Positions 1,830-32,574 of a DNA stretch of 64,000 nt are shown here, piece by piece. The stretch comes from a bacterium. GTDB lineage: Bacteria > UBA9089 > JASEIO01. Each line of letters starts with the position of its first letter. Positions within the stretch are counted from its first letter, which is position 1. The stretch spans positions 13,495 through 77,494 of the forward strand of contig JASEIO010000001.1 in assembly GCA_030017475.1 (NCBI GenBank). The letters run 5' to 3'. The translations under genes and the position numbers were made by a program. Below the pieces are notes generated by a model. It worked only from the letters and a program-made list of their open reading frames with translations. It made no database searches and was not told the origin of the DNA.

Positions 1830-3158
1830 GTGGATGGTTTAACGCCTAAACAGATTGTAAAAGAACTGGATAAGTACATTATTTCGCAGGACGAGGCCAA
1901 AAGGTCAGTGGCTATTGCCTTGAGAAACAGGACCAGGAGGAAGGAATTGCCAGAAGAGTTAAGGGACGAGGTAGCTCCAAAGAATATAATTATGATTGGT
2001 CCAACAGGGGTAGGGAAGACGGAGATTGCTCGAAGATTAGCGCGTCTTGCTAACGCCCCTTTTTTGAAAGTAGAAGCTACAAAGTTTACTGAGGTTGGTT
2101 ATGTGGGACGTGATGTAGAATCAATGATTAGGGATCTGACTAATATTGCGGTAGCTATGATCAAGCAAGAAGAGATTCAAAATGTAGAAGATAAGGCAAA
2201 GGAATTGGCTGAGGAACGTATTTTGGATATATTGTTGCCCGCTCCTCCGCAGAAAGATGTGGAGGATAAAGATCGGTTTATGGCAACCCGTGATAAATTG
2301 AGAAAAAGATTGCAAGAGGGAAGTCTTGAAGATCGATTAGTGGAAATTGAGGTGAAGGAGACCTTTGTTCCAATGATAGAGATATTTTCTACATCGGGAA
2401 TAGAGGGAATGGATTTGGGGTTTTCTGATGTCTTTTCCAATCTCTTTCCACAAAAGAAAAGAAGAAGAAAGGTAAGGATAAGAGAGGCAAGAGGAATATT
2501 ACAAAATGAAGAGGCTAACAAATTGATTGATATGGAGCAAGTGACAAGAAGGGCAATTAAAAAGGTAGAGGATTCAGGGATAATTTTTTTAGATGAGATA
2601 GATAAGATTTGTGGTGGTAATTCCAGCTCTTCGCCAGATGTATCGAGGGAGGGGGTACAAAGGGATATCCTTCCAATTGTTGAAGGTTCAACAGTTAATA
2701 CAAAGTACGGACCAGTTAAAACAGATCATATCTTATTCATTGCCGCAGGAACCTTTCATTCAACTAAACCATCGGATTTGATTCCAGAGTTACAGGGAAG
2801 ATTTCCAATTAGAGTTGAATTGACATCCTTAGGTGAAGAAGAGTTTAAGCGCATTTTAACTGAGCCTCGTAATGCCTTAATTAAACAGTATATAGCTCTT
2901 ATGAAAACAGAGGATGTGGAGTTGAGGTTTGAAGAAGACGCAATTTCGGAAATTGCCTCCATTGCCTGCCAGGTAAATGAACAGACAGAGAATATTGGAG
3001 CAAGGAGATTGCACACAATCCTTGAGAAGGTATTAGAGGAGATTTCTTTTTCGGCACCCGAACTGAAAAATAAAAAAATAAATATTACGGCGGATTATGT
3101 CAAAGAAAGACTTTCAAGGATTACCAAAGATAAAGACTTAAGTAAATACATACTATAA
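1830..3158 (+). CDS. hslU: ATP-dependent protease ATPase subunit HslU (ClpY)
   Basis: 442 aa. Walker [19 protein letters not shown]-terminus [30 protein letters not shown] is typical of HslU. GTG start at 1830 after AGGAGG 1815-1820. Confidence 0.95.
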
Positions 3159-3175
3159 ATTCTATAAATTATAAT

Positions 3176-3203
3176 TTAAGATTTAAATATAAAATGTCGA
3201 TAA
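3176..3203 (+). promoter_or_regulatory. putative sigma-28 (FliA)-type promoter upstream of flgB
   Basis: TTAAGATTT (3176-3184), 11-nt spacer, GTCGATAA (3196-3203). Compare the enteric sigma-28 consensus TAAAGTTT-N11-GCCGATAA. The same architecture recurs upstream of flgD. Confidence 0.4.
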
Positions 3204-3259
3204 ATATAATAAGATAAAGAACAGAAGGAGCTGATTTCTGATTTAATGGGAGGGGGAAG

Positions 3260-3679
3260 ATGTTTAACCACACTCTTTGGGGAAAAACAATAAATATTTT
3301 AGAGAAAGGACTTGATGCTGCCACCCTACGTCATCAAGTAATAGCTGATAATATTTCGAATGTAAATACCCCTGGATTTAAAAGAAAGGGGGTCTTATTT
3401 GAGAAGGAATTAAAAGAGGCACTGACCAGGAGACATAGATTTCAAACCAAAACCACTCATCCAAAACATATAAAGTTTACAAGTAGAGACCCTCAAGATG
3501 TCTTTCCTAAAATATTCACTGAATCTCACACATTTTATAGAAATGATTTAGGTAATGTTGATATAGATATAGAGATGTCTAATTTGGCAAAGAACCAAAT
3601 CATGTACAATGCCTTTGTAGAGAGGATTTCAGGTGGATTTAGACTCTTAAGGACTGTACTTAAGGGAGGAGGGATATAA
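3260..3679 (+). CDS. flgB: flagellar basal-body rod protein FlgB
   Basis: 139 aa. N-terminal rod motif LRHQVIADNISNVNTPGFKRK. First gene of the flagellar cluster; RBS GGGAGGGGG. Confidence 0.9.
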   Translation: MFNHTLWGKTINILEKGLDAATLRHQVIADNISNVNTPGFKRKGVLFEKELKEALTRRHRFQTKTTHPKHIKFTSRDPQDVFPKIFTESHTFYRNDLGNVDIDIEMSNLAKNQIMYNAFVERISGGFRLLRTVLKGGGI

Positions 3680-4120
3680 ATGGGATTATTTGATGCTATT
3701 GATACATCGAGTTCGGGTTTAACTGCTGAGCGCTTAAGGATGGATGTAATTGCCAATAATATTGCTAATGTCAACACAACTCGTACCCCTGAAGGTGGGC
3801 CATACCGAAGACAACAGGTAATCTTTGAGCCAAGAGAATCCCCAAGATTTAGCATTCCATTTGTAGGTAGAGATAGAAAACTCGAACCAGGGAAGGGAGT
3901 TAGGGTTGTGGCTATCCAGGAGGATGAGTCTCCACCTCGATTGGAATATAGGCCAGGTCATCCTGATGCGGATGAGAATGGGTATGTTAGATTGCCAAAT
4001 GTAAATATTGTAGTAGAGATGACAGATATGATTACTGCCACTCGTGCATATGAGGCAAATGTTCAAGTAATAACTTCTGCCAAGGATATGATGATGAGGG
4101 CATTGAGAATTGGTCACTAG
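3680..4120 (+). CDS. flgC: flagellar basal-body rod protein FlgC
   Basis: 146 aa. N-terminus LRMDVIANNIANVNTTRTPEGGPYRRQ and C-terminus EMTDMITATRAYEANVQV are FlgC signatures. Translationally coupled to flgB. Confidence 0.9.
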   Translation: MGLFDAIDTSSSGLTAERLRMDVIANNIANVNTTRTPEGGPYRRQQVIFEPRESPRFSIPFVGRDRKLEPGKGVRVVAIQEDESPPRLEYRPGHPDADENGYVRLPNVNIVVEMTDMITATRAYEANVQVITSAKDMMMRALRIGH

Positions 4121-4191
4121 ATTAGTTGTCAGTTGTTTAGATACCTATGGCTTGGAAAACCGATAACTAAATAACTAAGGGACGATGCAAG

Positions 4192-4500
4192 ATGCAGGTT
4201 GATTTGAATTCATTGTTACCAAAGCCTATATCTTCTGAAGCTAAGCCGATAAAAAAAGAGAGATCAGACTCTAGCGCTTTAATTGGTACCTTTTCAGAGG
4301 TTTTAAAAGGTGCCTTGACAGATGTAAATGACTTAGCCAATGAGGCAGATCTACTTTCACAAAAATTGGTTACAGGAGAGATTGATAATATTCATGGGGT
4401 TATGATTGCTGTATCAAAGGCAGAAGTGGCATTAGATTTGACTAATCAGATTAGAAATCGAGTGATAAGGGCTTATGAAGAAATAATGCGTATGCGCTAA
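4192..4500 (+). CDS. fliE: flagellar hook-basal body complex protein FliE
   Basis: 102 aa. C-terminus NQIRNRVIRAYEEIMRMR is typical of FliE. Sits between flgC and fliF. Confidence 0.85.
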   Translation: MQVDLNSLLPKPISSEAKPIKKERSDSSALIGTFSEVLKGALTDVNDLANEADLLSQKLVTGEIDNIHGVMIAVSKAEVALDLTNQIRNRVIRAYEEIMRMR

Positions 4501-4556
4501 GGTTATTTGTCAGGTGTTAGTATCTAAATATCTAAAAACTAAAAAGGGGAGGGGAA

Positions 4557-6191
4557 ATGCCGGAGTGGCTTTCACGGTTTGCTGAACAAATAAAAGGGGT
4601 TTGGGGTGGTCTAAATAGAGCTCAGAAGGCGATTTTAATAGGGGTTACAGGGTTTGTTTTTGTAGCCTTAACTGTCCTTATATTTTATGTTTCACGTCCA
4701 GAATGGGTTATTCTATATTCTAGATTAGATCCTGCTGAGGCAGGAAGGATAACTGCAAAATTAGCTGATTGGAAGCAACCTTATAAATTGGAAGAGACAA
4801 CAATCCTTGTGCCAGTGAAAGATAAGGATAGGATTAGATTAAGACTTGCTGCTGAAGAATTGGCTCCTACAGGAGGTATTGTAACCTTTGATATCTTTGA
4901 CAAGATAAAATTAACCACTACTGATTATGAAAGACGGGTTAACTTTTTAAGGGCCTTGCAGGGAGAGTTAACCCGGACAATTGAGTCAATTGAGCCTATA
5001 GAGAGTGCGAGGGTTATGATTGTTATGCCCGAGAAAAAACTCTATTTAGAGGAGGAAGAACCGGTTACTGCCTCTATTAAGCTTAAACTGAAACCTTATG
5101 CCCAGCTTACCTCAGGACAGGTCAAAGGGATTGTTAATCTGGCTGCTTCAGCGGTTGAAGGACTTACCCCTGAGAATGTAACTGTGGTAGATAATAAAGG
5201 AAATATCCTTTCTGATTTAATTAAACAGGAAGGTGAGATGACAACCTTGACTGCTAACCAGCTTGAATTACAGAAAGGAGAGGGAAAGGTATTAGAAAGA
5301 AAGATTCGTCATACATTAGGACAGGTACTTGGCCAAGATAAGGTGGAGGCAATTGTTAAATGTGAGATGGATTTTGATCGTGTGGAATCAAGGGCAGAGA
5401 GGTATTCAATGCCTGGATTTGAACAATTAAAGGTCTCCGAGGAGAAGGTCGATGAGCATTTTGAAGGCAAAGGGGCTACCCCTGGTGGTCCACCAGGTGT
5501 TGAGGCAAATATACCTGGGTATAAGGGAGTGGAAAAGGTAGGTCCAATGCAATATGATAAGAAGGAGGAAAGAATCAATTACCTTGCCGATAAAGAGGAT
5601 ATTGTAAGGATTCGTTCTCCTTATGTCTCAAGAATATCCGTAGCAGTATTCATTGATGGGAGTTATGAAAGGGATAAGGAAGGGAAATTGAAACTGGATG
5701 AGGAAGGAAAACCTATTTATATTCCAAGGACTAAAGAGGAGATGCAAACCTTTGAAGAGTTAGTCTGGGCTGCTATTGGGTCAGAAAAAGGGAAGACGTA
5801 TAAAGATAGGGAGTATATTGTTAAGGTTAAGAATGTCCAATTTGACCGGACTGAAGAGTGGGCTCAAGAACTGGAGGAAAAAAGGATAGTTGCGCAAAGG
5901 CGAATATTAAGCTTAGCTATTATAGGGGCATTGGTCTTTTTAGTAGGTATTGTAGCTTTAGTTAGATGGCAAGCAAGGAAAAAAAGAGAGAGGCTTGAAG
6001 AGGAGGCAAGAAGGAGGGAATTAGAAAGAGAAGCAGCTCTACGTGCAGTAGAAGAGGAGGAATTGGTGAAGTTGCCACCAGAGGAAAGAGAAAGGATAGA
6101 ATTGCAGCAAAGGACTGAGAGGATAGCTAAGGAGAAGCCAGAATTAGTAGCAGATTTAGTAAGAACCTGGATGGCAGAGGTACCAGAATAG
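4557..6191 (+). CDS. fliF: flagellar MS-ring protein FliF
   Basis: 544 aa. N-terminal TM helix, periplasmic RBM domains and a second TM helix near the C-terminus (LAIIGALVFLVGIVALV); charged C-terminal tail for FliG binding. Position follows fliE. Confidence 0.9.
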   Translation: MPEWLSRFAEQIKGVWGGLNRAQKAILIGVTGFVFVALTVLIFYVSRPEWVILYSRLDPAEAGRITAKLADWKQPYKLEETTILVPVKDKDRIRLRLAAEELAPTGGIVTFDIFDKIKLTTTDYERRVNFLRALQGELTRTIESIEPIESARVMIVMPEKKLYLEEEEPVTASIKLKLKPYAQLTSGQVKGIVNLAASAVEGLTPENVTVVDNKGNILSDLIKQEGEMTTLTANQLELQKGEGKVLERKIRHTLGQVLGQDKVEAIVKCEMDFDRVESRAERYSMPGFEQLKVSEEKVDEHFEGKGATPGGPPGVEANIPGYKGVEKVGPMQYDKKEERINYLADKEDIVRIRSPYVSRISVAVFIDGSYERDKEGKLKLDEEGKPIYIPRTKEEMQTFEELVWAAIGSEKGKTYKDREYIVKVKNVQFDRTEEWAQELEEKRIVAQRRILSLAIIGALVFLVGIVALVRWQARKKRERLEEEARRRELEREAALRAVEEEELVKLPPEERERIELQQRTERIAKEKPELVADLVRTWMAEVPE

Positions 6192-6216
6192 GCTATCAGT
6201 TAACTAAAAAGGGGAG

Positions 6217-7239
6217 GTGATTATTATGGCGGCTGTTGGGGAGCTAACAGGGCCTCAAAAGGCAGCTATACTTTTGGTTTCATTGGGTGAGGATGCCTCA
6301 GCAGATGTTTTTAAACATCTGCGTGATGAAGAGATTGAACAGATAACCTTAGAGATTGCAAGATTGCCGAGGATTGACGCAGAGCAAAGACACCGTGTTA
6401 TGGTTGAGTTTCATCAGATGATTCAAGCTCAGGAGTTTATTTCTCAAGGTGGAATTGAATATGCTCGGGAGGTGTTAGAGCGGTCTTTGGGTTCAAGTAA
6501 AGCAGCAGAGATAATTAATAGATTGATTTCTTCTTTACAAGTGAAGCCATTCGATTTTATAAGGAAGGCTGAACCGAGACAACTTTTGAACTTTATTCAG
6601 AATGAACATCCGCAGACCATTGCCTTAGTTTTGTCATATCTGCCTCCTGATAAGGCTTCAGAAGTTCTATCACAACTTCCTGCTGAACTTCAAACAGATG
6701 TTACTCAGCGTATTGCCTTTATGGATAGGACCTCTCCTGAGGTTTTGAAAGATGTGGAAAGGGTATTGGAGAAGAAGCTATCCTCTTTTATCTCAGAAGA
6801 ATATACTGCTGTTGGTGGAATTCAAACTATAGTAGATATGTTGAATATGGCAGATAGAGGGACAGAGAAGACAATTTTAGAGAGTTTAGGGGAACAGAAT
6901 CCAGAACTGGTAGAAGAGATAAAAAAGAGGATGTTTGTATTTGAAGATATTGTTTTGTTGGATGATAGATCTTGTCAAAAGGTTTTGAGAGAGGTGGAGA
7001 TATCGGATTTGGCGCTTGCTTTAAAAGGAGTGGAGGAAAAGATAAAAGATAAGATATTTAATAATATGCCTAAACGTGCTGCAGCAATGCTTCGGGATGA
7101 ATTGGAGTATTTAGGTCCGGTTAGGGCGCGCGATGTAGAAGAGGCTCAGCAAAAGATAGTAAATATTATAAGACAATTAGAAGATTCTGGAGATATTATT
7201 GTTTCTCGTGGCGGGAAAGGAGAGGCTATAATTGAATAA
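6217..7239 (+). CDS. fliG: flagellar motor switch protein FliG
   Basis: 340 aa. LTGPQKAAILLVSLGED N-terminus, ARM-repeat middle domain, and C-terminal torque-helix region DRSCQKVLREV ... MPKRAAAMLRDELEYLGPVRARDVEEAQQKIVNIIRQLEDSGDI. Confidence 0.9.
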   Translation: MIIMAAVGELTGPQKAAILLVSLGEDASADVFKHLRDEEIEQITLEIARLPRIDAEQRHRVMVEFHQMIQAQEFISQGGIEYAREVLERSLGSSKAAEIINRLISSLQVKPFDFIRKAEPRQLLNFIQNEHPQTIALVLSYLPPDKASEVLSQLPAELQTDVTQRIAFMDRTSPEVLKDVERVLEKKLSSFISEEYTAVGGIQTIVDMLNMADRGTEKTILESLGEQNPELVEEIKKRMFVFEDIVLLDDRSCQKVLREVEISDLALALKGVEEKIKDKIFNNMPKRAAAMLRDELEYLGPVRARDVEEAQQKIVNIIRQLEDSGDIIVSRGGKGEAIIE

Positions 7240-20331: not shown

Positions 20332-21351
20332 ATGGAAGAGGATACCACCCTTTCTCAAGAAGAGATTGATGCATTATTAGTAGAAGGAGGAGAGGTTGAA
20401 AAGGGAGAGCTTCCGATGACAGATATGGAAATTCAATCCCTAACTTCTTTCCTTTCAAAAGTCAGATCTAAGATAGCTTCGTCCATCACTTCTCTTTTAA
20501 AGAGGAGATTTGATATATCCAATCTTACAATCTCCTGCATCTCAACCGGAGAGTTGAAAGAGAGATTAGAGGGTGAATTTGTAGTTGCCAAAATCGAGTA
20601 TACTAAAGGTTTAATCGGAGAGGGTATACTAATCATTTCTAAGGATAATGGGGCTATTATATCTGATATAGTAATGGGTGATGATGGGACTTCTCCTCCT
20701 GAGGAGTTAGATGACTTATACCTTAATGCCTTAGGAGAGGTGATTACTCAAATGGTAAATCAAATGAACATGGCCCTTGACAAAAAGATAGAAGCCCTTT
20801 CACCAGAAGTAAGTATAATAGATTTTACCTCTCCGGATATTGACCTATCTATTTTAAAAGAACCAAATATCTTGTTTTGTACTTATGATCTATCGGTAGA
20901 AGGTTTGATTGAAGATAAACTGTTTCAGTTGTTTCCAGTAGACCTTGCCAAACAGGTATTAGTCTTGCGAAAGGATAAGGCCGCAGCACCACCACATGCC
21001 AAAAGGGTACCAATGCAGGAGGCAGTTTCTGTTCACCCTGTTCAATTCGGTACCTTAAAACCCAGTGAAAAGACTTCACCACCTTCAAATATCGACTTAC
21101 TTATGGATGTACCTATGCAGGTTACAATAGAACTTGGTAGGACTGAGATGTTGATAAAAGATATACTGAAACTTGGAGAAGGTTCAGTTGTTAAACTGGA
21201 TAAGGCAGCAGGTGAGCCAGTTGATTTGTTGGTTAATGGTAAATTGGTGGCTAAAGGTGGAGTGGTAGTAGTTGATGAGAACTTTGGAGTTAGAATTACA
21301 GATATAATCTCTCCAGTTGAGAGACTTGGTTGTGTTAAAAGTAACGAGTAG
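20332..21351 (+). CDS. fliY: flagellar motor switch protein FliY (CheC-like domain fused to FliN domain)
   Basis: 339 aa. N-terminus TLSQEEIDALL aligns with B. subtilis FliY. C-terminal SpoA/FliN domain PMQVTIELGRTEMLIKDILKLGEGSVVKLDKAAGEPVDLLVNGKLVAKGGVVVVDENFGVRITDII. Confidence 0.85.
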   Translation: MEEDTTLSQEEIDALLVEGGEVEKGELPMTDMEIQSLTSFLSKVRSKIASSITSLLKRRFDISNLTISCISTGELKERLEGEFVVAKIEYTKGLIGEGILIISKDNGAIISDIVMGDDGTSPPEELDDLYLNALGEVITQMVNQMNMALDKKIEALSPEVSIIDFTSPDIDLSILKEPNILFCTYDLSVEGLIEDKLFQLFPVDLAKQVLVLRKDKAAAPPHAKRVPMQEAVSVHPVQFGTLKPSEKTSPPSNIDLLMDVPMQVTIELGRTEMLIKDILKLGEGSVVKLDKAAGEPVDLLVNGKLVAKGGVVVVDENFGVRITDIISPVERLGCVKSNE

Positions 21352-21409
21352 ATTGGTTGTCAGTTTTTAGTTTCTTATCTAATAACTGATAACTAAGAGG
21401 GGGTAATTA

Positions 21410-22009
21410 ATGAAGATTTTAGCTTCTATTGTTCTTATTTTCATAGGTAGTTTCGCATTATTGACCTTTTCTGTGTATGGAGAAGAGGTTTTGGTCCAAG
21501 AAGCAGACAGCGCGGATCGAGCACTAAATAACGATCTGATATCAATTGATAATAAGACACCCACCCTTCGTACTAATTATGAGTTTAATTCCATTTCCCT
21601 TATATTCAAAACCATATTTGCTTTAGGGTTAATCACTTCGGTAATCTACCTTATTTTTCGTTTCTTTATGAAAGGACGGGCTTTTTTCCCTTTTACTTCA
21701 TCTTCCTTTATTCAGGTTATGGGTGTAGCTCCATTAGCTCCTAATAAATATATTCAGTTAGTGGAGGTAGCTAATAAGATTTTGATTTTAGGAATAAGCG
21801 GAGAAAATATTAATCTGTTATCCGAGATCAAGGAGAAGGAAGTGATAGATTTGATTAAAACTCATGGATCACGTGAATTAGGGAAAGAAAAGACCTCCTT
21901 TACGCACCATTTGAAGACCTTTTTTAAAGGATTTTCTGGTACAGAAGATTATAATAAAAAGATAGATTTTCTAAAAAAACAGCAGCAGAGATTGAAGGAT
22001 TTAGAATAG
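21410..22009 (+). CDS. fliO: flagellar biosynthesis protein FliO (FliZ of Bacillus nomenclature)
   Basis: 199 aa. Signal/TM segment, second TM helix, and FliO-like region YIQLVEVANKILILGISGENINLLSEIKEKE. Position upstream of the fliP/Q/R region. Confidence 0.6.
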   Translation: MKILASIVLIFIGSFALLTFSVYGEEVLVQEADSADRALNNDLISIDNKTPTLRTNYEFNSISLIFKTIFALGLITSVIYLIFRFFMKGRAFFPFTSSSFIQVMGVAPLAPNKYIQLVEVANKILILGISGENINLLSEIKEKEVIDLIKTHGSRELGKEKTSFTHHLKTFFKGFSGTEDYNKKIDFLKKQQQRLKDLE

Positions 22010-22046: not shown

Positions 22047-23879
22047 GTGGACTTATATAATTCCAATTTGGCCTTATTAAGAAAGGTAGAACCAGGTTTG
22101 TTCTATCGCCTACTTCGGGTTTCGAGGAATACCAGCTCGCATTTAAAACAAAAATTATCTCTTCCTCTACTCCTTAATTTTGATTTGCGGAATGCAGATG
22201 TGGTTGTAGTATTAGGATTTGGAATGGGAAGGCATATCCCTCAGATTGTAGAAAGGATTTCCAGGAGTTGTTTTCTTTTGATAATTGAGAGCGATTTAGG
22301 GATTTTTAAAGAGGCTTTACACCACATAAATCTCATTCCTTTATTTTCAAATTGCCGTGTTTCTCTATCCGTTGGAGAAGATCCCTTCAATGCCACCCGG
22401 GTTAGATTGGATAATTATTATGGAGTGCTGACTATAGCTAAAATAAAGGTTATTGAGTATTCGCCATCTATAGAGGTTTCACCTACCTATTATCAAAAGG
22501 TAAGGGATAATCTAAAGGATGCAGCAGAGATGGCAGTTAGAAATATCGCCACTATGAGTAAATTTTCATCCATTTGGAGAGGGCATGTTTTAAAGAATAT
22601 TACAGCCATTATCAAAAATCCAGGAGCGAATACATTGTGGGGTAAGTTTAAAGATATACCTTCGATTATTGTAGCAGCGGGTCCCTCCTTGGACAAAAAT
22701 GTGCTTGAGTTAAAAAAGGCAAAAAACCGTGCCTTGATAGTTTGCGTGGATACAGCCTTACGTACCCTTTATAATAATGGAATCCGACCAGATTTAGTGG
22801 TGTCCATTGATGCCCAAGATTTTAATCTAAAGGATTTTGAAGGGGTAGAGTTAACCGAGGAGGTGCTTTTGGCGGTTCCAGTGGTTTATCCGCCAATTAT
22901 TGAACGCTTTAATAATAGAGTATTTATAACCAGTTATGGACATCCATTAGTGGATTGGTTAGAGAGATCTATTGGAAAGAAGGGATATACAAAGGTTGGT
23001 GGTAGTGTAGCTACAACCTGTTTTGATTTCTTAATAAGGGCAGGTGCTAACCCCATTATTTTTGTGGGACAAGATTTGGCTTTCACTGAAGGGAAGACCC
23101 ATACTGGGTGCTCATTTGAGGTAGAAGATATCTTCTTAAATTCAATCGATAAATTCTGCACCTTAGAGATGATGTATAGAGAAATGATAAAGGAGAGACA
23201 AGACCTAATCGAAGTTGAGGATATCTATGGTGGAAAGGTAGAGACCTCAAAGCAAATGCTTGGTTGGTTAAAATGGTTGGAATCTCAAGTAAAAGAATCA
23301 GGAAGAGTTTGTATTGATGCTACTGAAGGAGGAGCAAGAATAAAAGGGACCCGCGTCATGAGATTGAAGGATGCTATTAAATACTACTGCAAAAAAGAGG
23401 TTAACATAAAGGGGATTTTATATAATGCCATAGATCTTTATCGGCAACCCAGAACAGAGGCATTAGTGGAGGAAATGAAAAGGTTAATTCAGGAATGTTA
23501 CTCTTTAGAAGAGATTGGGAAGAAAGGCAAAGAGACAGCAAGTAAGTTGATAGATATCCTATTTAGTGAAAAAAGGACAACGGATGTAACCAGTCAGTTA
23601 TTCTCTCAAATGGGTTCTTTTTATCAACAGATTTTTGGAAACCACTATCTTATGGAACTTTTTAGATGGTCGATTGAACCTTTAATTGCTGAGGTAGATA
23701 GGTTAAAGCAGGGTAAATCTCCTATGGTAGTGGCTAAGAGATGTGAGCACTTTTTCCAGGAGATTATGAAAATTATCCGAGAGATAATTTTACAGTTAGA
23801 AGAGGCAAAGGTTCAATTGGAAGATTTGGAATTACAAAAAGGCATGAGAAAACTTCATACATTTTGGCTGGAAGCCTGA
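22047..23879 (+). CDS. motility accessory factor (Maf) family protein, DUF115/MptE-like putative glycosyltransferase
   Basis: 610 aa. N-terminus MDLYNSNLALLRKVEPGLFYRL resembles Campylobacter Maf N-termini. DUF115 core VVVLGFGMGRHIPQIVE and IIVAAGPSLDKNVLELKKAKNRALIVCVDTALRTLYNNGIRPDLVVSIDAQ. Alpha-helical C-terminal half. Confidence 0.7.
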   Translation: MDLYNSNLALLRKVEPGLFYRLLRVSRNTSSHLKQKLSLPLLLNFDLRNADVVVVLGFGMGRHIPQIVERISRSCFLLIIESDLGIFKEALHHINLIPLFSNCRVSLSVGEDPFNATRVRLDNYYGVLTIAKIKVIEYSPSIEVSPTYYQKVRDNLKDAAEMAVRNIATMSKFSSIWRGHVLKNITAIIKNPGANTLWGKFKDIPSIIVAAGPSLDKNVLELKKAKNRALIVCVDTALRTLYNNGIRPDLVVSIDAQDFNLKDFEGVELTEEVLLAVPVVYPPIIERFNNRVFITSYGHPLVDWLERSIGKKGYTKVGGSVATTCFDFLIRAGANPIIFVGQDLAFTEGKTHTGCSFEVEDIFLNSIDKFCTLEMMYREMIKERQDLIEVEDIYGGKVETSKQMLGWLKWLESQVKESGRVCIDATEGGARIKGTRVMRLKDAIKYYCKKEVNIKGILYNAIDLYRQPRTEALVEEMKRLIQECYSLEEIGKKGKETASKLIDILFSEKRTTDVTSQLFSQMGSFYQQIFGNHYLMELFRWSIEPLIAEVDRLKQGKSPMVVAKRCEHFFQEIMKIIREIILQLEEAKVQLEDLELQKGMRKLHTFWLEA

Positions 23880-24983: not shown

Positions 24984-25058
24984 TTATAAGCTATAAGCTG
25001 TAAGGATTAAGCAGTAAGCTTTTCCTTATTTTAGTCCTAATCCTTTTTTGATTCAGTT

Positions 25059-25971: not shown

Positions 25972-27111
25972 ATGGAGGAGGTTTTTAACTCTCAACTGTC
26001 AACTGTGGACTGTGAATTAAAGATAGACCTACAGCTTTTTGCTGCTGAGGATGAGGGTAGAACAGAGGATCCGACTAGTAGAAAGATTTCGAAGGCAAGG
26101 CAAAAGGGTCAGGTAGCAAAATCAGCTGAAATTTCACAAATCTCAACGACCCTTGTCTGCCTTTTCCTTCTTTCCTTACTTGGCTCTTATTATCTCACTG
26201 AATTATATAGATTTATTTATACTACCATATCAAATATCCATGCCATAGATTTCACACCTGGGAATATCTCGATGATTATGGTAAATACAATCCTACTTTT
26301 TCTGAAGATAACCTTGCCAATAATGGTGACTGCGGTGGTTGTAGCTATAGTCACCAATATGATTCAGGTAGGGTTTATGTTTACCATGGAGCCACTAAAA
26401 CCTGATCTTTCAAAGCTTAAGCCAAGTATGTCAAAGATTTTCAATAGATTATTGATATCCAAAAAGACCCTATTTGAGTTTGCCAAATCTATTGCCAAAC
26501 TTGCAATTATTGTCTATATTGCCTACAGATTTATTAAGGCAAGATACTTGGATCTACTTTTATTGATAGAGATGCATCCGTTATCTTCTTTCTTCCTTGT
26601 AGCAAAGATTGCCTATCAATTAGCTATGGTCATCCTTCTTCTTTTAATCATTATAGCAATTTGTGATTATTTTTATCAAAAACGTGAATGGAAAGAAAGT
26701 TTAAAGATGACCAAACAAGAGGTAAAAGACGAATATAAGATGTTGGAAGGGGATCCATTGATTAAGAGTAGGATAAGAGAAAGACAAAGGGAGGCAGCAA
26801 GGCGTCGGATGATGCAGGAGATTCCAAAGGCAGATGTAGTGATTACCAATCCTACTCATATTGCTGTAGCCATTAGATACGTAGCTGAATATATGGCTGC
26901 ACCAGTTGTAGTAGCAAAAGGAGAGGGTTTTGTAGCTCGGAGGATTGTGGAGATTGCAGAAAAGGCAGGTATACCAGTTGTGGAAAATAAACCTTTGGCT
27001 GAGGCACTCTATCGCTCTACAGAGGTGGGAGAAGAGATTCCTGAAGAGCTTTATCGGGCTGTGGCTGAGGTACTATCGTATGTTTACAGAATGAGAGAAA
27101 GAGCCGTGTAA
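25972..27111 (+). CDS. flhB: flagellar biosynthetic protein FlhB
   Basis: 379 aa. LQLFAAEDEGRTEDPTSRKISKARQKGQVAKS N-terminus. Four TM helices. Conserved autocleavage region NPTHIA (NPTH motif). Confidence 0.9.
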   Translation: MEEVFNSQLSTVDCELKIDLQLFAAEDEGRTEDPTSRKISKARQKGQVAKSAEISQISTTLVCLFLLSLLGSYYLTELYRFIYTTISNIHAIDFTPGNISMIMVNTILLFLKITLPIMVTAVVVAIVTNMIQVGFMFTMEPLKPDLSKLKPSMSKIFNRLLISKKTLFEFAKSIAKLAIIVYIAYRFIKARYLDLLLLIEMHPLSSFFLVAKIAYQLAMVILLLLIIIAICDYFYQKREWKESLKMTKQEVKDEYKMLEGDPLIKSRIRERQREAARRRMMQEIPKADVVITNPTHIAVAIRYVAEYMAAPVVVAKGEGFVARRIVEIAEKAGIPVVENKPLAEALYRSTEVGEEIPEELYRAVAEVLSYVYRMRERAV

Positions 27112-30376: not shown

Positions 30377-30451
30377 AGATCTTAACTGTAAGGATTAAGC
30401 TTAAAGGAAACTTAATTTTTTAATCTTATAGATTAGTAAATGGGAGGGAAA

Positions 30452-31719: not shown

Positions 31720-31794
31720 ATAATTTTTCTTTTTTCCATGTTTTCCCGTTTTCCATACTTACACAGATTCAGAGAGCTGATTTGAAGGTGAGTG

Positions 31795-32574
31795 ATGGCG
31801 AAGTCAGAAGAGGAAATTTGGAAGCAGTATAAAAAGACAGGGGATCCAAAATTAAGAGAAGAGTTAATCATAAGATATGCCCCCATGGTTAAATACATTG
31901 CTGGAAGAATTGCAGTTTCTACTCCTCCATCAATTGAATATGATGATTTAGTAAGTTATGGCGTCTTAGGGTTGATTGATGCTATTGAAAGGTATGATCC
32001 TAAACATGGATCAAAGTTTAAGACTTATGCTACGAGTAGGATTAAAGGATCAATCTTTGATGAATTAAGGTTACTTGATTGGGTACCAAGACAGATTAGA
32101 AGAAGGTCAAAGCAGCTTGAAGGTGTATATGCAGAGTTAGAGAGTAAATACGGAAGGGCAGTTAGAGATGAGGAAGTAGCTGAGGAGTTGGGGATAGGTG
32201 TGGAGGAGTTGCAAAATCTTATCACGAGCGTAAGTGGCACATCTCTTATTTCTTTAGAAGATATGAAACATTTAGGTGATGATGATGAAGTGGCTATGTT
32301 TTCCACAATTGAAAACCCTGAGACTCAAAATCCAGAGGCAATTTTAGAAAAGGAAGAGGTGAAGAATCTTCTTGTTGAGGCAATCAATAGACTTCCACAA
32401 AAGGAACGTGAAGTTATTACTCTTTACTATTATGAGGAATTGACTCTAAAGGAGATTGGTGAAGTTCTTGGTGTTACTGAGTCAAGGATTTCTCAACTTC
32501 ATACTAAGGCAATTTTAAGACTTCGTGGATTTCTTTCTAAGATGAGAAGAGTATCCAAAGGTTCAGTTGCCTAA
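31795..32574 (+). CDS. fliA: flagellar sigma factor sigma-28 (FliA/SigD)
   Basis: About 259 aa. Region 2 (YDDLVSYGVLGLIDAIERYDPKHGSKFKTYATSRIKGSIFDELR) and region 4 HTH (LTLKEIGEVLGVTESRISQLHTKAILRLR). Confidence 0.9.
   Translation: MAKSEEEIWKQYKKTGDPKLREELIIRYAPMVKYIAGRIAVSTPPSIEYDDLVSYGVLGLIDAIERYDPKHGSKFKTYATSRIKGSIFDELRLLDWVPRQIRRRSKQLEGVYAELESKYGRAVRDEEVAEELGIGVEELQNLITSVSGTSLISLEDMKHLGDDDEVAMFSTIENPETQNPEAILEKEEVKNLLVEAINRLPQKEREVITLYYYEELTLKEIGEVLGVTESRISQLHTKAILRLRGFLSKMRRVSKGSVA

Follow-up and report, generated by a model that had tools for sequence, protein, structure and literature searches.

Heptamer-built imperfect palindromes between stop codons and ribosome-binding sites in a Bacillota-type flagellar operon

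The closest described relatives of the element reported here are the TAACTGA heptamers of the 'Maribeggiatoa' genome, where 169 direct-repeat sets were found, most of which point at a start codon and end just before it (about 1 nt) (MacGregor 2015, Front Microbiol 6:1397, PMC4679880). Cyanobacteria, some Bacteroidetes and Thiocystis carry the same repeats; these form direct arrays of 2-6 copies (up to 43), mostly without an SD, with one inverted set in 170 (PMC4679880). Their function is not established, and ribosomal protein S1 as well as Csp or CsrA-like proteins were proposed as readers (PMC4679880), while a Nostoc preprint on different heptamers close to start codons is no less speculative about function. 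REP and REPIN sequences, in turn, are short imperfect extragenic palindromes that lie in operons and at the 3′ ends of genes, with arms more conserved than their loops (Bertels and Rainey 2011, PMC3116915). REP hairpins stabilise RNA 3′ ends, transcription not being terminated (as stated in PMC12642595).

We analysed a 64,000-nt stretch of DNA (the window) with a GC content of 38%, whose + strand holds a Bacillota-type fla/che operon with Wood-Ljungdahl genes further downstream (Table 1). The nearest relative of its FlgD among 5.8 billion protein clusters shared 50% identity, with none above, and the closest match of its FlgC in metagenome contigs shared 64%. Two genes of the operon were conspicuous by themselves. 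The FlgE-like hook protein (12576-17060, with a 313-nt spacer upstream) is a giant of 1494 aa, in which the D1, D2 and C-terminal domains lie at the ends and an insert of about 1000 aa lies between, as compared to 412-592 aa for the hook proteins of relatives. Furthermore, a Maf/MptE-like gene (610 aa, 22047-23879) of a putative flagellin glycosylation family is located between fliO and fliP, a position at which it was not found in any of the three relatives examined (L181, L183, L184).

Table 1 Features of the analysed window, with positions counted from its first nucleotide
Feature	Coordinates	Strand	Description
fliE-upstream hairpin	4122-4170	+	left arm 4122-4134 TTAGTTGTCAGTT, loop 4135-4157, right arm 4158-4170 AACCGATAACTAA
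Second tandem copy of ATAACTAA	4171-4178	+	8-nt duplication of 4163-4170; TRF period 8, 2 copies, 100% match
Degenerate third copy, fliE-fliF spacer	4503-4542	+	left arm TTATTTGTCAGGT with 2 mismatches, right arm ATCTAAAAACTAA with 3 mismatches
AACTAAAAAGGGGAGG before fliF	4537-4552	+	a single AACTAAA unit running into a strong SD
fliG-upstream TCAGTTAACTAAAAAGGGGAGG	6196-6217	+	left-type TCAGTT abutting right-type AACTAA, then SD
fliO-upstream hairpin	21353-21396	+	left arm 21353-21365 TTGGTTGTCAGTT, right arm 21384-21396 AACTGATAACTAA
Operon, 5′ part		+	xerC, hslV, hslU, flgB (3260), flgC (3680), fliE (4192), fliF (4557), fliG (6217)
Operon after fliG		+	fliH, fliI, fliJ, SLT-domain gene, fliK, flgD (11831), 1494-aa FlgE
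Operon after FlgE		+	flbD, motA, motB, fliL, fliM (19429), fliY (20332), fliO (21410)
Operon after fliO		+	Maf/MptE-like gene, fliP, fliQ, fliR, flhB, flhA, flhF, MinD/ParA-like gene
Sigma-28-family sigma factor gene	31792-32574		downstream of MinD/ParA-like gene

A preliminary description of this locus had reported a motif common to the spacers before fliE, fliF and fliO, and inspection of the sequence indeed located the motif sequences in all three. A search with the 3′ box (AACyGATAACTAA) also matched the 5′ box (TTrGTTGTCAGTT) on the minus strand; the two boxes are reverse complements and therefore represent the two arms of one hairpin. The motifs upstream of fliE and fliO are two copies of an imperfect palindrome of 45-50 nt. 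Each element spans the interval from the upstream TAG plus 1 nt to the SD of the next gene, which itself remains outside the stem and unpaired. The fliE hairpin begins 1 nt past the flgC stop codon (TAG, 4118-4120), and its stem comprises 13 bp including one G.U pair and one A.C mismatch. The second copy of ATAACTAA provides an alternative, shifted right arm and adjoins the fliE SD (AAGGGA, 4177-4182), followed by the start codon (ATG, 4192); an ATG at 4185, previously taken for the start of fliE, opens an out-of-frame ORF of five codons. The fliO hairpin begins 1 nt past the fliY stop codon (TAG, 21349-21351) and combines an outer stem of 13 bp with an inner 4-bp stem (21367-21370 with 21379-21382). 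Directly 3′ of the fliO stem lies the SD (GAGGGGG, 21397-21403), and the start codon follows at 21410 (ATG). Between the two copies, the arms are conserved at 24 of 26 positions, while the loops are unalignable. Two details of the original reading needed amendment: GTTGTCAG in the fliO copy is followed by five T, not six, and the C(C/T)GATAACTAA box, said to lie 15 nt after TTTAG in both copies, does so at fliO but is separated by 19 nt at fliE. The complementarity of the boxes, their 7-nt build and the fact that the unit is known and widespread had all been missed.

RNA structure prediction, which the preliminary description had recommended, bore out a hairpin clearly for one of the three spacers. 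The fliO region folded with -18.4 kcal/mol (z -4.5), a stability equalled by 0 of 200 shuffles, and was the only statistically exceptional fold among the three copies. Its minus strand, in which C.A mismatches replace two G.U pairs, reached only -9.9 kcal/mol, so that the sense strand was more stable by 8.5 kcal/mol. The fliE copy adopted two nearly isoenergetic folds, one in the register homologous to fliO (-11.5 kcal/mol) and one in the shifted register (-11.8 kcal/mol), and across both registers about 95% of the ensemble has its left arm paired; at z = -1.0 this fold is not exceptional by itself. No fold was obtained for the fliF copy (z +0.9).

The similarity of the fliE and fliO copies was assessed by an all-against-all comparison of 36 spacers (3.9 kb). 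Positions 4118-4137 at fliE matched 21349-21368 at fliO over 20 nt with two mismatches (TAGATT[A/G]GTTGTCAGTT), and positions 4158-4170 matched 21384-21396 over 13 nt with one mismatch (AAC[C/T]GATAACTAA). No other pair of these spacers contained two such blocks, and chance similarity of the two copies was rejected on the basis of this comparison. Taken singly, the short words show no enrichment in the window (GTTGTCAG, two observed versus 0.9 expected; TAACTRA, 27 versus 25); the significance arises from both arms combined and from their position. A generic repeat finder applied to the whole window was dominated by purine-rich coding matches and hence uninformative. At up to 3 mismatches per 13-nt arm, the copy in the fliE-fliF spacer was the sole further two-arm match in the entire window. 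As shuffled spacer sequence yielded an equally good match in 3.2% of trials, its membership, judged from sequence similarity, is suggestive only; it is a decayed relic and also holds an 8-nt duplication (TATCTAAA twice, 4521-4536, TRF). The motif assigned to three spacers thus stands far above background for fliE and fliO but is weak for fliF.

The SD context reported to be common to fliF and fliG proved to be an exact 16-mer, with 4537-4552 identical to 6202-6217 (AACTAAAAAGGGGAGG). The fliG site is unable to form an RNA hairpin, because its units abut without a loop. It nevertheless constitutes a loop-less palindrome, AGTTAACT, and the four half-sites of the fliE and fliO copies share the consensus TTAGTTRTCAGTT at 11-12 of 13 positions, as would be expected if TTAGTTrTCAGTT-N18-23-AACyGAyAACTAA were a DNA operator for a dimeric protein, be it a flagellar regulator or one of the nucleoid proteins. 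We consider such an operator very improbable. The spacing of the half-sites is unequal (23 versus 18 nt), and the sites lie between genes within the operon instead of at promoters. In both copies, moreover, the same position is G in the left arm and T in the right arm (G.U in RNA), an asymmetry that fits whole-unit copying or RNA pairing better than symmetric DNA half-sites. The class matches listed in the genome scan described below also avoid divergent, promoter-side spacers.

The C(C/T)GATAA box had further been likened to the -10 element of sigma-28 (FliA/SigD) promoters, and internal promoters had been proposed on these grounds. CCGATAA is similar to such an element, the operon encodes a sigma factor of the sigma-28 family, and an internal promoter of this type does exist in the operon. 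When the whole window was searched with the pattern TAAG-N15-GCCGATAA allowing up to 2 mismatches, the only meaningful matches were located at 3177-3203 before flgB and at 11775-11801 before flgD (internal to the operon), whereas neither the fliE nor the fliO hairpin matched at canonical spacing. Compared to the consensus TAAA-N15-GCCGATAA, the likeness consists in C(C/T)GATAA inside the right arm of the hairpin, while the -35 element, the spacing and, for fliO, the CGA core differ. Read as a promoter, the fliE copy would be TTAG-N18-ACCGATAA, in which both the 18-nt spacer and the -35 element are wrong, and the fliO copy has TGA instead of the CGA core. The box is wholly explained as the complement of the hairpin 5′ arm. 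With the two matching promoters as in-window positive controls, its reading as a -10 element was rejected, and internal sigma-28 promoters at these sites are hardly credible. A false lead is thereby removed. Both genuine matches share the extended form TTAAGATTTAA-N-G(T/C)CGATAA, and the one before flgB (3177-3203) overlaps a sigma-70-like TTTAAA-17-TATAAT.

Scanning of positions 3000-6400 revealed neither a sigma-70 promoter nor an intrinsic terminator at the fliE, fliF and fliG elements. No U tract follows the stem at the fliE or fliO hairpin, and direct reading of the sequence confirmed that the fliO stem runs into GAGGGGG. At gathering threshold, Rfam returned two tRNAs only for the window and no family at the elements, and E-value scans of both spacers yielded noise only (E > 1). 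The fliO copy is a stable sense-strand hairpin between stop codon and SD that, by its sequence and the sigma-28 search, shows no terminator or promoter features. Among the roles originally offered (internal promoter, processing or stability element, or binding site for a post-transcriptional regulator), the first has fallen away, and a processing or stability element fits the anatomy of a hairpin after the stop codon with a free SD and no U tract.

For comparison with related flagellar operons, we collected 80 FlgC-related loci (at most 64% identity), 26 of which were evaluable for the flgC-fliE spacer. This spacer usually measured 0-40 nt and contained merely an SD and no hairpin; longer spacers were present in 5 of the 26 loci, with unrelated sequences. 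The fliY/N-fliO junction was tight in two of the three relatives fetched (L183, L184). In 514 kb of related flagellar loci, AGTT/AACT heptamer hairpins and 3-unit AACT arrays were found zero times, as opposed to two hairpins and one array in the 64-kb window. A conserved flagellar regulatory hairpin was rejected on account of these short spacers and the lack of heptamer hairpins. Since related flagellar operons are without the element, those of the window represent lineage-specific insertions. We conclude that the motif is real and non-random, and that it is neither a flagellar promoter nor a conserved regulatory site.

The third relative fetched (L181, ENA ERZ27247128 k141_1816806; identical FlgD in NCBI GCA_018818825.1) is, among the relatives found on long contigs, the closest by FlgD, and it shares the gene order of the window with different insertions. 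Its fliL-fliM spacer carries a direct heptamer array (GCTGACA CCTGATA GCTGAAA GCTGATA CCTGAAC), its fliY-fliO junction a sequence-unrelated hairpin (-15.3 kcal/mol, z -2.5), and an element of about 130 nt occurs twice, in the fliM-fliY spacer (270 nt) and upstream of fliG. Judging from these sequences, intercistronic spacers of the flagellar operon in the clade of the window seem permissive for such insertions. On the same contig, the region at about 10032-14151 has very long, repeat-laden spacers, among them a motA-motB spacer of 303 nt with an internal duplication of about 150 nt, and a sigma-28-like TAAA-N16-GCCGATAA lies ahead of the SLT gene. In another relative (L108, FlgC 61% identity), a 61-nt spacer after flgC (about 4224-4290) contains the heptamers GAATTAG GAATGAG GAATGAC and a 10-bp hairpin (AATTAGGAAT/ATTCCTAATT), another sequence-unrelated insertion at the flgC 3′ junction.

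The elements might accordingly be neutral repeat debris, that is, products of heptamer slippage or dispersal that persist in permissive spacers without a measurable effect on expression. Relatives lack the element, the spacers of L181 are full of unrelated repeats, and for the TAACTGA repeats no function has been shown (PMC4679880). The graded series of an intact fliO copy (z -4.5), a weakened fliE copy (-1.0) and a decayed fliF copy (+0.9) speaks against a maintained function; it looks more like neutral decay. On the other hand, the arms are far better conserved than the loops, both good copies occupy the identical register from TAG plus 1 nt to the SD, and an mRNA hairpin of -18 kcal/mol, directly flanked by a stop codon and an SD, would hardly be without any effect. 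We therefore regard neutral debris as possible, though on the unlikely side.

Closer inspection showed both arms to be built of 7-nt units in phase, AGTTnnn in the left arm and its complement, nnAACTn, in the right arm, which are heptamers of the TAACTGA/TAACTAA type. In the fliO copy, three left and two right units share a single 7-nt phase (GTTGTCA GTTTTTA GTTTCTT / ATCTAAT / AACTGAT AACTAAG), and the right arm corresponds to TAACTGA + TAACTAA, i.e. one canonical unit and one single-base variant at period 7. The fliE copy has two units on the left and 2-3 on the right, one step being 8 nt long (TAGTTGT CAGTTGT ... CGATAACT AAATAACT); its tandem is TAACTAA twice at period 8, and no site in the window has two canonical TAACTGA units. 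Both copies thus have at least 2 in-phase complementary units per arm, as inverted AGTT/AACT heptamer arrays, and both are intergenic with the stem just 3′ of a stop codon. Short duplications of period 7 or 8 were also detected by TRF in other spacers of the operon.

The window shares the 7-nt unit with the published repeats, and TAACTGA, CAACTGA and AAACTGA recur in the listed matches of the genome scan. As in the published cases, some of which have an SD 2-25 nt downstream (PMC4679880), the units are intergenic and point forward to a nearby start, at 15-27 nt for the flagellar sites. They differ in that only 2-3 units are present per arm, in inverted arrangement, ahead of strong SDs and in a Bacillota-type MAG. 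The kind of repeat is therefore already known; its inverted hairpin arrangement and its wide distribution go beyond the 2015 description.

A post-transcriptional regulator that reads the heptamers, as hypothesised by MacGregor (ribosomal protein S1, a Csp-like or a CsrA-like protein), would account for the placement of the intergenic AACTRA copies, of which the window has seven, six of them 15-27 nt ahead of the start codons of fliE, fliF, fliG and fliO, for the exact 16-mer common to fliF and fliG, and for the way in which the Beggiatoaceae repeats point towards start codons (PMC4679880). Such a reader would nevertheless encounter base-paired units in the fliE and fliO stems and only 1-3 units per site, next to strong SDs, which most of the Beggiatoaceae cases lack. 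The window shows no enrichment of TAACTRA (27 versus 25), its intergenic excess being due in part to the stop codons inside the unit. A heptamer reader of this hypothetical kind appears distinctly unlikely.

To trace the palindrome beyond the window, the two-arm pattern GTTGTCAGT-N12-34-ACYGATAACTAA was derived from the window, whose own copies have only 2-3 units per arm, and run against about 185,000 species genomes. The scan matched at least 100 loci, versus about 12 chance matches by our estimate for uniform base composition. Most of the matches listed (the first 100 of at least 100) are long hairpins formed by inverted heptamer arrays, with tandem AGTTGTC/AGTTATC/AGTTGTT units in the left arms and tandem CAACTGA/AAACTGA/TAACTGA/TAACTAA units in the right arms. 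At least three in-phase cores in one arm and at least two in the other were counted in 56 of these 100 (units NAACTGA / AGTTGTC); several others use AGTC/GACT variants, and a handful resemble chance or coding matches. According to crude ORF calls, 95 of the 100 listed matches are intergenic, with 50 between co-directional, 18 between convergent and 5 between divergent genes, and the difference between convergent and divergent spacers was significant (p = 0.011). Many of the matches listed begin within tens of nucleotides of an upstream stop codon, and some directly precede an SD and start codon, as in the window. Inverted arrays among the matches listed thus prefer gene 3′ ends and short intercistronic spacers.

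Taxonomically, the matches listed cover Cyanobacteria, Hymenobacter and other Bacteroidota, Chloroflexota, Acidobacteriota, Planctomycetota, Nitrospirota, Poribacteria, Chromatium okenii (Chromatiaceae) and others; no Bacillota occur among these first 100 of at least 100, and the source genome itself is not in the list. The listed inverted arrays of the AGTTGTC/GACAACT type come from at least 12 phyla and fold into hairpins with -30 to -88 kcal/mol; one genome often has several of them, as in Hymenobacter antarcticus, Chromatium okenii and MAGs of Pyrinomonadaceae and Poribacteria. The cyanobacterial genera most prominent among the listed matches are also rich in STRR repeats, which Mazel et al. 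are reported to have described in 1990 as 7-nt tandem intergenic repeats with the units CCCCAGT, TTGGTCA and CAACAGT. Those units differ from the AACTGA unit, and the comparison serves as a lead only. In 2015, TAACTGA heptamers were known as direct repeats from few lineages, and here they appear as inverted hairpin arrays in many phyla. This cross-phylum hairpin form of the repeat is more intriguing than the window elements themselves, which are of modest interest.

For the matches listed, and after correction for the bias of the pattern, no significant sense-strand preference in folding energy was detected at the level of the class (0.5 kcal/mol, p = 0.39), and the orientation bias was weak (32 versus 18, p = 0.065). 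Selection at the RNA level is thus not demonstrated for the class, and the missing strand preference is a further point in favour of neutral debris. It is conceivable that AGTTnnn/nnAACTn palindromes constitute one functionally unified cross-phylum class that is read by a conserved cellular factor (ribosome-, RNase- or polymerase-associated) and sets expression boundaries after flgC and fliY, although we hold this to be highly unlikely. If it were true, these boundaries would help to fix subunit stoichiometry, and the window would add a Bacillota-type anaerobe to the phyla that carry heptamer palindromes.

We assign a probability of roughly one half to the reading that the heptamer palindrome acts, if at all, as a REP-like intercistronic RNA hairpin with at most a modest effect. 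By this account, lineage-specific heptamer palindromes would have been inserted into intercistronic spacers of the Bacillota-type fla/che operon, having arisen by slippage or dispersal of heptamer repeats and not by descent from a conserved flagellar regulatory site. Within the polycistronic transcript, a hairpin would form at the fliO copy and, less firmly, at the fliE copy, without causing termination or sequestering the SD. The hairpins would then slow the degradation of the upstream segment by 3′->5′ exonucleases (flgB-flgC for the fliE copy, ...fliM-fliY for the fliO copy), an effect on RNA that we infer. A slight influence on termination and re-initiation at the junction would be a further consequence, because the 5′ arm of a stem that starts 1 nt after the stop codon lies in the footprint of the terminating ribosome, which must melt it. 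Our reading does not draw on a 2015 study in which Liang, Rudd and Deutscher reportedly observed that REP elements within 15 nt of stop codons reduce upstream translation.

The likeness to REP and REPIN sequences (PMC3116915) comprises short imperfect extragenic palindromes in operons and at gene 3′ ends, arms that are more conserved than loops, and a stable hairpin, which is strong for fliO and weaker for fliE. REP hairpins stabilise upstream mRNA without terminating transcription (PMC12642595), and the window hairpins may be likened to them by analogy. A similar bias in placement is shown by the listed heptamer-class matches, for which convergent pairs are far commoner than divergent ones. 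REPs differ in being GC-rich, without tandem heptamers, present in hundreds of copies and RAYT-linked, whereas the window contains 2-3 copies in 64 kb within one operon, with AU-rich stems that are shorter than those of typical REPs. Among about 40 of the roughly 63 window ORFs, which were screened against Pfam, no RAYT gene was seen, and the sole recombinase was an XerC-type integrase (274-1161) in the conserved xerC-hslVU position. In place of the sigma-28 promoters, the stable hairpin that fills precisely the space from the stop codon of fliY to the ribosome-binding site of fliO now provides a testable lead, and a short, simple example beside well-understood genes could serve as an experimental handle on the repeat.

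Other heptamer traces were noticed elsewhere in the window. The fliQ-fliR spacer (24984-25058) carries a period-7 array directly after the TAA stop codon (TATAAGC TATAAGC TGTAAGG ATTAAGC AGTAAGC), from which CTGTAAGGATTAAGC recurs exactly after flhF (30386-30400, in the spacer 30377-30439). This is the second motif to recur among the spacers, and its heptamer unit is another one. Three in-phase AACT heptamers (AACTCTC AACTGTC AACTGTG, 25987-26006) are situated inside the annotated 5′ end of flhB, whose ORF starts at 25972 and whose Pfam match begins at residue 29; the array may be either coding or part of a 5′ leader, in the latter case with a GTG at about 26005 as the true start. Repeats of period 7 were also present in coding sequence, namely in the SLT-domain gene (10040-10092, ACCCAAC in 5.7 copies) and in fliK (11322-11388, CCATCAC/ACCCAAT/CATCCAG), which suggests a general tendency to heptamer slippage in the source genome.
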